The notes under the pieces were generated by a model. That model was not told where the DNA came from. It did no database searches and worked only from the letters and a program-made list of their open reading frames with translations. Positions 26,986 through 30,402 of a DNA stretch of 46,106 nt are shown piece by piece; within the stretch, counting starts at the first letter, position 1, and every line of letters begins with the position of its first letter. Location: the IMG/VR virus record IMGVR_UViG_2939127364_000005. One strand, 5' to 3'. The position numbers were made by a program, and so were the translations under genes. Source of the stretch: a virus (taxonomy: Duplodnaviria; Heunggongvirae; Uroviricota; Caudoviricetes).

Positions 26986-27468
26986 TCATCGAAGGCATTG
27001 CGTCCTAATGTATTCCTGAAGCGTTCTCAGTGCTGTTTGGTCGCGGATAATTCCGTCCCGGATATCGAGAACGTTTCGTCCAGCAACTGGAGAGAGTTCG
27101 ACGGTGGCATCATTGCCCATGCCGGAGGCGCTGGAGGTTTCGGCTGAGGATGGCACAGGGCATTTTCCTTTGACGAGCACCCTGCCACCATTATCAAGCT
27201 TCCGCAGAAGAGCATCATTTTCAGCTTTAGCATCAGCTAACTCCTTCGTGTATTTTGCATCGAGCGCAGCAACATCACGCTGACGCATCTGCATGTCAGT
27301 AATTGCCGCGTTCGCCAGCTTCAGTTCTCTGGCATTTTTGTCGCGCTGGGCTTTGTAGGTAATGGCGTTATCACGGTAATGATTAACAGCCCATGACAGG
27401 CAGACGATGATGCAGATAACCAGAGCATAAATAATCGCGGCGACTCTACTCACTGATCTATCCCCCAA
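26986..27468 (-). CDS. Rz: Spanin inner-membrane subunit Rz (i-spanin)
   Basis: N-terminal half (...[77 protein letters not shown]) matches lambda Rz as recalled; C-terminal half diverges. Confidence 0.85.
27027..27233 (-). CDS. Rz1: Spanin outer-membrane lipoprotein Rz1 (o-spanin), embedded in Rz in the +1 frame
   Basis: [21 protein letters not shown]... with lipobox (VAGC) and proline-rich segment [14 protein letters not shown]. Confidence 0.75.
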
Positions 27469-27983
27469 CAGGCTAATGCGCTTTCCTGGTCACGACGAAT
27501 AACCTGTCCATAGCAGTTATTTGAACGTATGCGGCAATCGCGCCCACCATCTTTTATCCACCAGCGAATCGCCTCGCATGCACCTTTACGATCACCGGCA
27601 TTCAGCCGCTTATAAAACGTCGACGGGAAACACTTACCGGGGCCAATGTTATAGGGACAAAATGACGCGATACCCGCTTTCTGTGGTTCGGTCAGTGGCA
27701 CTTTAATATTGCGCCCCACCCATGCCAGCGCCTTATCCCGTTCAATGGCGTTAACCTGGTCGCATTTTTCCTTCGACAGTTTCATACCGGGAACAACGGG
27801 TTTTCCATCCACCACCGTGGCACCCCGACAGATGGTCCAGATGCCGGAACCATCGCGGTATGCCGTTGTGTGGTTACCTTCTTTTTCATCCAGAAACTGG
27901 TCGAGAATATCAGGCGCAGGCGCACCGACGGCAATCAGTGCCAGAACGGCAGCCGACAGGCCGTATCTGATTTTTGCGTTCAT
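27450..27983 (-). CDS. R: Endolysin, GH24 lysozyme type with an N-terminal SAR-like (signal-anchor-release) segment; not the lambda R transglycosylase
   Basis: Weakly hydrophobic Gly/Ala-rich N-terminus ([18 protein letters not shown]) followed by a T4-lysozyme-like catalytic triad spacing E-x8-D-x5-T ([16 protein letters not shown]). Confidence 0.75.
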
Positions 27984-28088
27984 GGATATTTATCAGGATT
28001 TATCGGTTTCTGAACCCTGGATATGTTTATCTGTCCCGGCCTGTTGAATCAGGCAAGGAATAGTTAAATACAATAGAGAGGATTGTTT

Positions 28089-28361
28089 ATGGACAATAGC
28101 ACCATTTCTCTACAGGAGTTGCTCGACTGCATTTCCAGGCTTCGGGATGATGTAAATGCCCTTACTGTCGCATTTTCATATCTGGCATTCTCAATTCCCA
28201 AGGAACAAATGCAACCAACACTGGCATCGCTCCAGCTTGAATCACTCAACCCCAAATGGTCCCAGCAACAACAAAATTCTTTCAAGTGGCTGGCGGTATT
28301 ACTGGAAGAAAAATATGCTGGTGAAATTACCATTTCGGCGGAGTCTTCAGAGAACCAGTAA
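28089..28361 (+). CDS. Hypothetical 90-aa protein inside the lysis cassette, opposite orientation to the lysis genes
   Basis: Protein-like translation (MDNSTISLQELLDCISRLRDDVNALTVAFSYLAFSIPKEQ...); GAGAGGA ribosome-binding site about 7 nt upstream of the ATG; overlaps the 3' end of the next minus-strand ORF by about 35 bp. Confidence 0.4.
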   Translation: MDNSTISLQELLDCISRLRDDVNALTVAFSYLAFSIPKEQMQPTLASLQLESLNPKWSQQQQNSFKWLAVLLEEKYAGEITISAESSENQ

Positions 28362-28671
28362 TTCTTCCCGGTAGCTTTCCTTTGTAGGTTATCCACACAT
28401 TCTGCGCCTCTAAAATTATGGGGCGCTTTTCCGGCGACAGCTCATCCCCTTCACATAACCCGGCAGCAACATCCAGGAAGACCTGTCTGATGCTCCTTCT
28501 GGCTGCTGCCTCATAAAACTCCAGCGCGGCACCTTCAACACGGTCCAGCGAGATGTCCAGGTCAAAAATTTCACCGTCAAAGCGTTTTTTGTCCCGTAAC
28601 GCTAAAGTTACCGTAACTTTATTCTCAAAATTGCGGATCCCTTTCACAATCAGTTCATAGTTTTGAGTCAT
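28327..28671 (-). CDS. Hypothetical protein between holin and endolysin (114 aa), possibly YdfR/DUF1327-like
   Basis: No transmembrane segment; sits where E. coli Qin prophage has ydfR between essQ and rrrQ; family assignment by position only. Confidence 0.5.
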   Translation of the reverse strand: MTQNYELIVKGIRNFENKVTVTLALRDKKRFDGEIFDLDISLDRVEGAALEFYEAAARRSIRQVFLDVAAGLCEGDELSPEKRPIILEAQNVWITYKGKLPGRITGSLKTPPKW

Positions 28672-28675
28672 TGAA

Positions 28676-28891
28676 TTACTCTCCCCGTGCAGCCTTACGC
28701 TTGTCTTCTTTAATCTTGAAATAAAGATTTGTCAGATACGTCAGCAGGCCAAATACCAGGCTACCCAGCACACCTATTGCCGCCCACTGTGAGGGCGTGA
28801 CTTTATCGAGCAACTGTAAAAACCAGTATCCCGCACTACCCGCGGATGTTCCGTAGGCAATGCCAGTAGAGATTTTGTCCATTGATTTCAT
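28676..28891 (-). CDS. S: Phage-21-type class II holin (pinholin S21-like, 71 aa) with dual-start motif MKSM
   Basis: [71 protein letters not shown] closely resembles phage 21 S as recalled. Confidence 0.85.
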
Positions 28892-29009
28892 AGCAACGCC
28901 TCCGCAAGTAACGGATTGCGTAGTTCTTATATTGGGAAGGGGAAAAAAGAAGGCCGCAGCGTAACTATCACTGATGAATTCAGGACAGCCAGTGGCTCCG
29001 GCTCAGTTA

Positions 29010-29085
29010 TGGTGCTGGTTAACGGACTTGAACCGCTACCCATTCGCTTACAAGGCGACTGCTCTACCATTGGAGCTAAACCAGC
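29010..29085 (-). tRNA. tRNA gene (76 nt, CCA encoded); anticodon by manual folding is UGU (Thr)
   Basis: Manual cloverleaf: perfect 7-bp acceptor stem GCTGGTT/AACCAGC, D-arm GCTC-CAATGGTA-GAGC, T-loop TTCAAGT, anticodon loop CTTGTAA; one G-A mismatch at the top of the anticodon stem. Confidence 0.65.
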
Positions 29086-29090
29086 ATATT

Positions 29091-29165
29091 TGGCGGGACA
29101 GCGTGGACTCGAACCACGATAAGAAGGTTAACAGCCTTCCGTAATGACCTTTATGCGACTGACCC
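29091..29165 (-). tRNA. tRNA-like gene (75 nt, CCA encoded) with GUU (Asn) anticodon; may be functional or a pseudo-tRNA
   Basis: Anticodon arm GAAGG-CTGTTAA-CCTTC and T-arm CGTGG-TTCGAGT-CCACG are perfect and resemble E. coli tRNA-Asn loops; acceptor stem has one T-T mismatch and the D-stem pairs poorly. Confidence 0.5.
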
Positions 29166-29228
29166 AAACAAAAAAAGCCACCGTTGCAACTTAAGAGTCA
29201 CTAACGGCAGCTTACCTTCTAATTATGG

Positions 29229-29747
29229 CTAAATGGATAATTGCATGTCAAGGCTTTTAACAGCAACATGCTTAACTTTCTCAACACGTTTACGCATTTT
29301 GAAAGCATTTTGCATTGGCTGGTACAAAACAAATAACGACGCTTTCAGGATGTCGTCAATTTCGTTTCTACAGGTTGCCAGTGAAGGTTTTCTCCATCCC
29401 TCGCCACCACGTCCACACATCTTGCGTGGCTTTGCAGTCGCGTGATAGTAGGATGCAATTGCTCGCTTAGATGAACCATGAGCGTAGTAGCTGAGGAGGA
29501 TGCCAAAGGCTTTTTTGTCAATGCACATGACGGAATCGACGACCTGAGAAATCAACATTCCATCATCATCATTACACATTGGCCTTGTCATAACTCTTCC
29601 CGGCTCTACGCTCTCCATGAACTTAGCTATTACGCTGCTCATGCGCTTTTCCAGACGACCTGAATAAACCCATGCGCCCCACAGTTCAAGCCAGCCATTC
29701 AGCCACTCGTGCTGTTCTTTGGTGAGGTTTAGTTCTCTTATGCCCAT
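29229..29747 (-). CDS. Q: Late antiterminator Q, phage 82/21 (QuuD-like) family; 172 aa from the ATG at 29747 (ORF track begins at a GTG at 29804)
   Basis: Motifs WGAWV...CNDDDGMLISQ...LLSYYAHG resemble the E. coli QuuD / Phage_antitermQ family as recalled; lies between ninG and the lysis genes. Confidence 0.65.
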   Translation of the reverse strand: MGIRELNLTKEQHEWLNGWLELWGAWVYSGRLEKRMSSVIAKFMESVEPGRVMTRPMCNDDDGMLISQVVDSVMCIDKKAFGILLSYYAHGSSKRAIASYYHATAKPRKMCGRGGEGWRKPSLATCRNEIDDILKASLFVLYQPMQNAFKMRKRVEKVKHVAVKSLDMQLSI

Positions 29748-29790
29748 GCGCCTTCTCCCTTGTGATCTGGAATGGTTTTTACTGAGAACG

Positions 29791-30402
29791 TCATGCGGCC
29801 TCACTTCTGCTGTTTCGCAGGTCTTTGAGTTTCTGCTGATACTCCGCCTTGATGGCCCTGCACTCTTCGACAGTCCAGCGATGGCGGTTATGGTTTGATT
29901 CGATTTCGTCTACTGCTTCCTGCCCGATGCGGCTAATCAGTTCGACGCGATACGGAACGAGATTTCCGCTTTTGTGCTGGTTGCACACCACGCATTGCTT
30001 GTGAATATTGCGTTCATCAAATCGGAGTTGAGGTGCCGCAGCAGTTGTCCGGTAATGTCCGGCATCCCACTGAGCAGACGTGAGCGTTCCGCACGAGATA
30101 CATGGTAAGTCGCGGTCTCTTTCTCTGATGAAGGCGTTTACGGCTTGTTGGGCTTGTTTAATCCAGTAACTGCGGGGCTTTAAGGCGAGTTTTCGAATCT
30201 TAAGTTTATCTTTCTGTTTCTGCTCCTCTCGTCGTCGTTTCTTCTCTGCTGCTTTTTCCGCTTTTTCGCGTTCTTTACTTCGTCGTTCGAGTGCTATCTT
30301 GGTTCCACACTCTGGAGAGCACCACCACTGATTAGCGAATGCAGGATGAAACCATTCCCGACATTCTTCGTTTTTACATCGTCTTCGCGCTTGTTTAGCC
30401 AT
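29791..30402 (-). CDS. ninG: NinG / Rap recombination-promoting nuclease (203 aa)
   Basis: [44 protein letters not shown]... matches lambda NinG as recalled. Confidence 0.9.

Follow-up and report, generated by a model that had tools for sequence, protein, structure and literature searches.

A backward gene in the phage-21-type lysis cassette of an Escherichia coli prophage is a genuine gene, probably carried as a moron

The window analysed here, a stretch of 46,106 nucleotides recorded in IMG/VR as a virus of the Caudoviricetes (IMGVR_UViG_2939127364_000005), is an E. coli lambdoid prophage with its late operon on the minus strand. Within that operon lies a phage-21-type lysis cassette comprising a pinholin, an endolysin of the signal-anchor-release (SAR) type, whose release from the membrane is predicted, and Rz/Rz1. 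Holin and endolysin genes adjoin each other in the canonical cassette of phage 21. Here they are parted by a spacer of 692 bp (27984-28675) that contains two further open reading frames (ORFs), one of 114 amino acids (aa) on the minus strand and one of 90 aa on the plus strand. An initial annotation, made from the letters alone, had already recognised the phage-21-type module and the spacer of about 690 bp, and it offered three readings of the plus-strand ORF: a moron, a lysis-timing regulator, or no gene at all. We find that the 90-aa ORF is a genuine protein-coding gene under purifying selection, and we consider it likely that it is carried as a moron, a small self-contained unit lying backwards in the late (lysis) operon. 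Its 114-aa neighbour belongs to YdfR/DUF1327, a family whose function is only starting to be studied. The features at the locus are as follows.

28089-28361, plus strand: the 90-aa gene (ATG at 28089, stop codon at 28359-28361), found as an ORF, by the Prokaryotic Genome Annotation Pipeline (PGAP) and by PHROG 2411.
28327-28671, minus strand: YdfR-family (DUF1327) gene, 114 aa, co-oriented with the lysis genes (Pfam PF07041, PGAP).
28327-28361: 35-bp overlap of the convergent 3' ends of ydfR and the 90-aa gene (ORF coordinates, PGAP).
28064-28396, minus strand: 110-aa antisense ORF, open in the window, a shadow of the 90-aa gene.
28676-28891, minus strand: S21-type pinholin with the MKSM dual start (MKSMDK...; Pfam PF04971, 'Bacteriophage P21 holin S', E 8.7e-36).
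27450-27983, minus strand: lysozyme of the phage 21 R / RrrD type with a SAR-like Ala/Gly/Leu-rich N-terminus (Pfam PF00959, Phage_lysozyme).
26986-27468, minus strand: Rz spanin (Pfam PF03245, E 2.4e-31).
27027-27233, minus strand: Rz1, embedded in Rz (ORF).

Because the lysis genes lie on the minus strand, the 114-aa ORF is co-oriented with them, and the 90-aa ORF alone is opposite. The 35-bp overlap is annotated likewise in related records. Protein Data Bank (PDB) matches for the lysozyme are that of phage 21, whose structure is solved (3HDE, E 3.6e-16), and RrrD (4ZPU, E 6.9e-16).

The 90-aa ORF is called a 'hypothetical protein' by PGAP (WP_000370550.1). Its translation, when started at TTG, matches PHROG 2411, a family of function unknown, over residues 3-92 against profile positions 1-90 of 90 (E 1.7e-59); no Pfam or NCBIfam family matches it. 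By nucleotide similarity, 1220 of the 5426 complete E. coli genomes searched (22%) carry the ORF, and when 60 rows were spread evenly down the ranking of 1222 E. coli records, PGAP's 'hypothetical protein' lay under the match in every one of the 59 rows that reach the ORF. The comparative set consists of 168 loci, reduced to 48 unique sequences at 80-100% nucleotide identity. Across these versions there is not one insertion or deletion from the lysozyme gene to the holin gene, and all lineages have exactly 90 codons, even where protein identity falls to 70%. For the part of the ORF outside the ydfR overlap, the plus frame has a ratio of nonsynonymous to synonymous substitution rates (dN/dS) of 0.30, while the four frames whose third positions do not coincide with it give 0.93-1.33. 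Variable sites at plus codon positions 1, 2 and 3 number 35, 24 and 57, the usual 3>1>2 order, and replacements are mild, with a mean BLOSUM62 score of +0.13 and 69% at or above 0. Stop alleles in the plus frame are four, each confined to one locus. The initial annotation had named conservation and codon-level selection as the way to judge this ORF; on both counts the plus frame behaves as a gene, the pattern of non-coding DNA is absent, and, with a wider protein family in view as well, the suggestion that it might not be a gene falls away.

The minus strand of the same region has its own open frame of 110 aa, and at 0.25 its dN/dS is even below that of the plus frame; this low value is a matter of geometry, the two frames sharing their third codon positions. 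The 110-aa frame contains eight stop alleles, some of them in up to 18 loci and several fixed in lineages, and none of the strongly divergent lineages is free of them. Replacements in this frame are radical (mean BLOSUM62 -1.00, with 36% at or above 0), its codon-position variability is inverted, and it has no family match in Pfam or PHROG. The lineage-fixed stops and radical replacements exclude it as a real gene. A programmed extension of ydfR into the region was likewise considered and is excluded, since the C-terminal extension of the 176- and 183-aa YdfR forms is a different sequence and not a translation of this region.

The comings and goings of the 90-aa gene speak to its nature. A moron, in the account of Juhala et al. 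(2000) as relayed in PMC3594210, is add-on DNA of different composition that has a promoter and a terminator to itself and is expressed while the prophage is repressed. The window gene is extra DNA with respect to otherwise matching phages: in one related locus (L002) the holin, ydfR and lysozyme genes are 96-97% identical to those of the window, and a segment corresponding to about 28042-28335, with the leader hairpin, the ribosome-binding site and nearly the whole ORF, is missing; among the complete genomes, 1220 carry the gene and 4313 carry ydfR-type sequence. It can also be replaced. In E. coli A24 (L003, NZ_CP028751) an unrelated plus-strand ORF of 79 aa (1634-1873), preceded by a canonical copy of the upstream element described below, occupies the slot of 28089-28361 between a 104-aa variant of ydfR and the lysozyme gene, and the slot is thus a site of cassette exchange. 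This 79-aa ORF was tried as a member of the 90-aa family and rejected (hhalign probability 0.3%). Base composition deviates as well, at 44.7% G+C for the 90-aa ORF and 38.1% upstream of it, compared with 52.8% for the lysozyme gene and 50.9% for Rz; the gap to ydfR (47.5%) and the holin gene (47.7%) is small. The moron option of the initial annotation is thereby strengthened by cassette presence, absence and replacement, by a lower G+C content, by a ribosome-binding site of its own, by a terminator-like hairpin and by an upstream region homologous to that of HK022 gene 23.

The gene also keeps changing company. It is kept where ydfR has lost its 5' two-thirds, ahead of a different lysis set (holin_8, holin_3_7 and an M15 peptidase; L170) and in Shiga toxin (Stx) phages, and an isolated live phage, Chlobot, has an identical module. 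In E. coli B/REL606 (L183, NC_012967, 21626-23525; also L182) an EssD-type holin, ydfR, the backward gene at 99.6% identity, lysozyme and Rz lie inside the defective Rac prophage, adjoining ydaF/sieB and without Q or pR'; the neighbouring lysis genes there are intact too. Distant relatives are found backwards between tail genes M and L (Atlantibacter), backwards beside packaging (terminase) genes (Klebsiella), and alone at chromosomal sites. These placements in tail and packaging operons and at non-phage sites, together with lysis cassettes that work without the gene, leave the lysis-timing regulator put forward in the initial annotation without support. One chromosomal relative (P0078, 92 aa; L180 1-4730) is flanked by dinI and bssS and lies some 1.7 kb from rne, on its downstream side and with two genes intervening, a non-prophage context beside an SOS gene.

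Two of the related loci show further rearrangement of the lysis region. In L170 (2430-3803) the S21 holin, ydfR and the backward gene are followed directly by the unrelated Phage_holin_8, Phage_holin_3_7 and M15 peptidase; this prophage has two successive holin systems and lacks a lysozyme of the phage 21 type. In L160 (1589-2901) a ParE/ParD toxin-antitoxin pair follows the lysozyme gene in the place of Rz/Rz1, and ydfR is without its 5' part.

Four candidate expression signals surround the 90 codons.

27980-28030, plus strand: promoter-like part of the proposed moron's head, with a -35-like TTTATC at 27999-28004, a 17-nt spacer and a -10-like TATGTT at 28022-28027 (nhmmer, alignment).
28039-28054, plus strand: leader hairpin GCCUG-UUGAAU-CAGGC (fold of 28034-28091, alignment with related heads).
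28076-28082, plus strand: Shine-Dalgarno sequence GAGAGGA, 6 nt before the ATG (sequence).
28404-28432, plus strand: terminator-like hairpin GCGCCUC-9 nt-GGGGCGC followed by UUUUCC, 43 nt past the stop codon and inside ydfR codons (folds).

The GAGAGGA motif and the coordinates of the ORF agree with the initial annotation, and the AGGATT-TTTATG core, with its AGGA and ATG, is invariant in versions down to 80% nucleotide identity. The sigma-70-like promoter proposed there fared less well. Its likely candidate, TTGAAT-TACAAT, was rejected: it has a 19-nt spacer, it would start transcription inside the ribosome-binding site, and its TTGAAT is the loop of the leader hairpin. The candidate that takes its place is a homologous, promoter-like head that abuts the lysozyme start codon in divergent orientation. 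A profile built from 78 heads has, through its promoter-like part, its sole significant match in the window at 27980-28030 on the plus strand (nhmmer, E 3.8e-5, over 46 kb and both strands), and the TTTATC and TATGTT of the window correspond to the TTGCT/TTACT ... TAAGGT/TATGTT of the head family. This profile match and alignment make TTTATC-17-TATGTT the best promoter candidate, from which transcription would start near 28034 and place the hairpin at the 5' end of a leader of about 55 nt. The 58 bp between the lysozyme start and the hairpin are the most conserved stretch of the region, with a nucleotide diversity (pi) of 0.008 against 0.04-0.13 nearby. The leader hairpin stands at the place of the canonical covarying CAGUG-GUGGGA-CACUG of related heads. 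No LexA box was seen by eye upstream of the ORF. At the other end, the terminator-like hairpin is kept in divergent versions and in the A24 locus, and of 71 related cassettes, 35 have a comparable hairpin with a T-run after the cargo ORF, while the control strand gives 13 of 71.

The head is far from private to this gene. It was found by comparing upstream regions, and it is common to the distant relatives and to the unrelated 79-aa ORF; the class is one delimited in this analysis and not a published family. Its pattern, TATCAGG(G/A)T...ACCCTGGT-TA(A/T)NGT upstream of an ORF, is also that of the window, and its 22-base core has more than 120 exact matches in IMG/VR. Among 92 unique copies, the ATG-initiated ORF in most cases starts 73-79 nt past the start of the motif. 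The ORFs so preceded are mostly 62-99 aa long, and the 87 recovered fall into 21 BLAST clusters. The head occurs as well in phages HK022, HK633, mEp043, mEp213, ES18, SPN3UB and Oslo. In 49 of 83 unique cassettes both of the nearest large ORFs are on the opposite strand, and in a further 17 the sole flanking large ORF is also opposite; the window gene, opposite to holin, ydfR, lysozyme and Rz, shares this orientation. The initial annotation was therefore right about the opposite orientation and overstated how unusual it is, given that 22% of genomes carry the gene and that most head cassettes lie backwards.

In its full form the head continues into a structured leader of about 75 nt (L176 3922-4004, L174 3916-3998, L003 1551-1633, L304 of HK022 2501-2623, and L184-L303). 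Over 62 diverse heads the proposed leader structure is 98.1% paired, against 30-48% with slid partners, and none of 500 shuffles reaches the observed value, although the search pattern had fixed most of the first hairpin and inference on that hairpin is limited to the same extent. Six leader pairs have changed on both sides, and the covarying elements are CAGYG-GUGGGA-CRCUG and a second hairpin, AGAGG...CCUCU, whose loop GGCUGA can pair with a 5' TCAGCC as a candidate pseudoknot-like interaction; those bases are invariant. The window's leader is about 26 nt shorter than the canonical one and has one diverged hairpin, at 28039-28054; the canonical arrangement (TCAGCC, CAGYG-GUGGGA-CRCUG, GGCUGA hairpin) is absent from the window even with three mismatches allowed. 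The element is unannotated in the 223 E. coli genomes carrying it and has no RefSeq annotation, Rfam has no family for the region or the related leaders, and our literature search found no description of a conserved head. In HK022 (L304, 2478-2500) and HK633 (L305, 1275-1296) a G+C-rich hairpin (GCCACCCGAAGGTGGC and GCCGCACGATGGCGGC, respectively) lies directly upstream of the head and may serve to shield the cassette from the gene next to it. The window is without such a hairpin because its head abuts the lysozyme start codon.

The product belongs to a wider family. A profile search over 1.8 billion representatives returns relatives of 81-97 aa at 25-50% identity that share the motif ELLD.IS.LR..VN.L..AFSYLAFS....E....T...L.FES and come from E. 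coli (a second paralogue, called 'Ybl58' on one plasmid), Klebsiella, Atlantibacter, Brenneria and Sodalis. A genome-contig scan with a second family alignment gave no match. AlphaFold2 (AF2) models the 90-aa protein with a predicted local distance difference test score (pLDDT) of 83.5 and helices at residues 8-34, 38-52 and 59-77. With an isoelectric point of 4.3, a grand average of hydropathy (GRAVY) of -0.29 and no hydrophobic segment, the product is predicted to be a small, acidic, cytoplasmic three-helix protein. A Foldseek search of this model against PDB and BFVD gave nothing informative (all E > 0.5), nor did a PDB sequence search, and PADLOC-DB has no match for the 90-aa protein, for YdfR or for most relatives, one relative matching marginally (E 0.0049). 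The homology and structure prediction suggested in the initial annotation has thus yielded the YdfR and PHROG 2411 families and AF2 models, and no informative fold for the 90-aa protein.

The neighbouring 114-aa ORF was correctly described as present and lacking a transmembrane segment; its identity had been missed. It matches PF07041 over residues 1-112 (E 4.1e-42; 142.8 bits against a gathering cut-off of 25), PGAP labels it 'YdfR family protein', and it has no hydrophobic stretch (GRAVY -0.30). Its dN/dS is about 0.4, and ydfR-matching sequence is found in 4313 of 5426 complete E. coli genomes. YdfR is a frequent facultative member of S21-type cassettes. It comes in forms of 103/104, 114, 116 and 176/183 aa that have the N-terminal domain in common, modelled by AF2 for the 114-aa form as a beta-beta-beta-alpha domain followed by a low-confidence C-terminus. 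The sequenced forms (window 28327-28450; P0135, P0120, P0123, P0220) part ways at or before the motif SLKTPP, and K-12-type copies share at the DNA level only the first 68-70 or so codons of the window ydfR. The long forms have an extra helical C-terminal domain, encoded on the same strand, where the window has the backward gene. The K-12 protein binds the N-terminal half of RNase E through its residues 1-72 and co-purifies with RNase E(1-598) and RNA, and its over-production has little effect on the transcriptome (PMC13232886, 2026).

How the unit might work depends on the late operon in which it sits, whose upstream part is laid out as follows.

29229-29804, minus strand: Q (Pfam PF06530, Phage_antitermQ).
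29222-29251, minus strand: TTGACA-18-CATAAT, a pR'-like late promoter lying downstream of Q (11 of 12 positions matched in the promoter scan).
29010-29165, late (minus) strand: tRNA-Asn (GTT) and tRNA-Thr (TGT), between the pR'-like promoter and the holin gene.

The place of these two tRNA genes is taken in related prophages by different sets (Ile, Lys, Thr, Gly).

Overall, we favour a reading in which the unit would consist of the promoter-like head, a short leader with its 5' hairpin and Shine-Dalgarno sequence, the 90 codons, and the hairpin with its U-run in the 3' end of ydfR. Consider, then, a lysogen. The unit would be transcribed alone, away from the lysozyme gene and towards ydfR and the holin gene, and its transcript would end at the hairpin. 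After induction, Q-modified transcription from pR' would reach the lysozyme gene only by crossing the unit in antisense, a passage that probably silences or overrides the unit. The 90-aa protein most likely binds another macromolecule for the benefit of the lysogen, for example in phage exclusion or host modulation. Nothing ties it to lysis, and it is most likely no part of the lysis machinery.

Several points weigh against this picture. A consensus sigma-70 scan upstream of the 90-aa ORF finds no promoter, the head scoring below threshold with a poor -35 element. The terminator-like hairpin is followed by only four U and lies in ydfR codons, so that its terminator role is putative and its conservation is confounded with coding. 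Because the window is without the canonical structured leader, homology to the head class spans only about 50 bp. Most of the loci were gathered by protein similarity, which biases the set towards intact copies. A plus-frame dN/dS of 0.3 is moderate, and the four plus-frame stop alleles compare with a neutral expectation of about seven (146 variant alleles), a count not by itself low, so that only their rarity in the frequency spectrum speaks for selection. No match to a fold, family or defence system in Pfam, NCBIfam, PADLOC, PDB or Foldseek points to what the 90-aa protein does, and our literature search gave no transcription or translation data for the gene; published work on a Gifsy defence protein and on an LF82 moron proved to have no bearing on it.

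A bolder version of the same idea would make the 90-aa gene one cargo of an undescribed exchangeable-cassette system in enterobacterial temperate phages. In such a system a shared promoter and pseudoknot-capable leader head would drive lysogen-specific, possibly riboregulated expression of a large and fast-changing set of small proteins whose genes lie backwards in late operons; the window's head would be a trimmed copy, and its product would act with YdfR on RNA decay or in phage exclusion. Taken as a whole, we regard this as speculative and rather unlikely.

The first of the competing explanations has the 90-aa protein work together with YdfR, for instance as its inhibitor, antidote or co-factor, the two forming a convergent, overlapping two-gene module within the lysis cassette. 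It is attractive because of the 35-bp 3' overlap and the link to RNase E: K-12 YdfR binds the N-terminal half of that enzyme and co-purifies with RNA, and a distant relative of the 90-aa gene lies near rne. The pair, moreover, travels with the S21 holin before different endolysin types and in Stx phages, and other members of the head class are also convergent with a small co-oriented ORF (HK022 gp22/gp23, a 71-aa ORF in L176, a 62-aa ORF in L174). Yet those convergent partners are unrelated to YdfR, and the idea is weakened because each gene often occurs alone: ydfR-type sequence is in 4313 genomes and the 90-aa gene in 1220, the 90-aa gene survives truncation of ydfR, some relatives have no DUF1327 gene nearby, and an unrelated ORF can fill the same slot. 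We consider such a partnership unlikely.

Alternatively, the unit might act mainly at the level of RNA or transcription, its convergent transcript pairing with the ydfR 3' end and perhaps with the holin transcript, damping leaky lysis genes in the lysogen or excluding related superinfecting phages, with the protein secondary. Its orientation and 3' overlap fit this, there is a precedent in STnc6030 of BTP1 (PMC7067206), the head and leader are better conserved than the ORF, and the leader of related heads is structured, with pairs that covary. Should the weak hairpin leak, the sole other terminator-like site on the plus strand is at 28903-28920, beyond the holin gene. Selection, however, acts on the amino acids, and the family is kept at 25-50% identity across genera and insertion sites; chromosomal relatives have nothing to be antisense to, and the terminator-like hairpin would restrict the antisense overlap to about 100 nt of ydfR. 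Small as the chance of a YdfR partnership is, we would give this explanation less.

That the plus ORF is no gene, being either non-coding spacer or the reverse side of minus-strand coding by the 110-aa ORF or an extended ydfR, is highly improbable: the open 110-aa frame with its low dN/dS, the existence of 176- and 183-aa YdfR variants and the lack of a Pfam or NCBIfam family could be cited for it, but coincident third positions explain that dN/dS, the minus frame is riddled with stop alleles and radical replacements, the YdfR extension is a different sequence, the plus ORF is called by PGAP, and it has distant protein relatives.

Regardless of what the protein does, the lysis cassette carries two genuine passengers, and the opposite-strand gene now has a defined anatomy. 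About one complete E. coli genome in five has it, those of E. coli B/REL606 and the ST131 strain EC958 among them, which makes it directly testable in standard strains, and the link through the head to HK022 gene 23 and to diverse small ORFs offers a handle for systematic moron finding. The YdfR neighbour and its tie to RNase E raise the question of whether lysis cassettes carry modulators of RNA metabolism. Since moron-type elements have been known since 2000, the novelty is modest, and if this is merely one more moron without known function, the result is an ordinary annotation clean-up. The interest rests on the uncharacterised protein family, the neighbour YdfR and a head common to many small genes.

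The locus can be set beside several known systems. Like the S21-R21-Rz-Rz1 cassette of phage 21, it has a P21 S-family pinholin with MKSM, a lysozyme related to R21/RrrD and an embedded Rz1; it differs in the 692 bp and two extra genes that part holin from endolysin. The YdfR of the K-12 Qin prophage belongs to the same Pfam family as the window protein and is likewise encoded between an S21-type holin (essQ/essD) and a lysozyme (rrrQ). The N-terminal 70 or so residues are conserved between the two, a portion responsible in K-12 for binding to the N-terminal half of RNase E. The proteins differ in their last 40 residues and in length (103 aa in K-12, 114 aa in the window), and RNase E binding by the window protein may be supposed by analogy.

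STnc6030 of the Salmonella prophage BTP1 is an antisense RNA to late structural genes that is expressed in the lysogen and confers superinfection exclusion (PMC7067206). The window unit is likewise antisense to late genes and, by analogy, may likewise be active in the lysogen; STnc6030 is non-coding and 786 nt long, whereas the window unit encodes a conserved protein and its predicted antisense overlap is short. HK97 gp15, an inner-membrane protein, is a moron for superinfection exclusion (Cumby et al. 2012, as reviewed in PMC3594210). It too is a single small accessory gene in a lambdoid late operon, with its own expression signals and expression from the prophage to the lysogen's benefit, where the signals in the window are predicted ones. 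The two proteins have no sequence relationship, and the 90-aa protein, in contrast to gp15, has no hydrophobic segment; an exclusion function for the 90-aa gene would be conjecture by analogy.

Another parallel is gene 23 of HK022 (NC_002166), annotated 'srb protein; moron gene product', for which our literature search found no function. The two units differ in cargo and in site: gp23 and the 90-aa protein have no significant similarity (the family hidden Markov model gives E ~0.4 on gp23-type cargo), HK022 has the full leader (TCAGCC, CAGUG-GUGGGA-CACUG, GGCUGA hairpin) where the window has only a diverged single hairpin, and gene 23 is inserted between tail genes I and J, the window gene in the lysis cassette. 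Like the window gene, gene 23 is a small ORF (73 aa) on the strand opposite to the late operon, it is an addition with respect to related phages, it is convergent and overlapping with the small co-oriented gp22, and it is preceded by the head, in an upstream region homologous to that of the window (TATCAGG..T..ACCCTGG.TA...T), with which the upstream region of HK633 gp65 aligns too.

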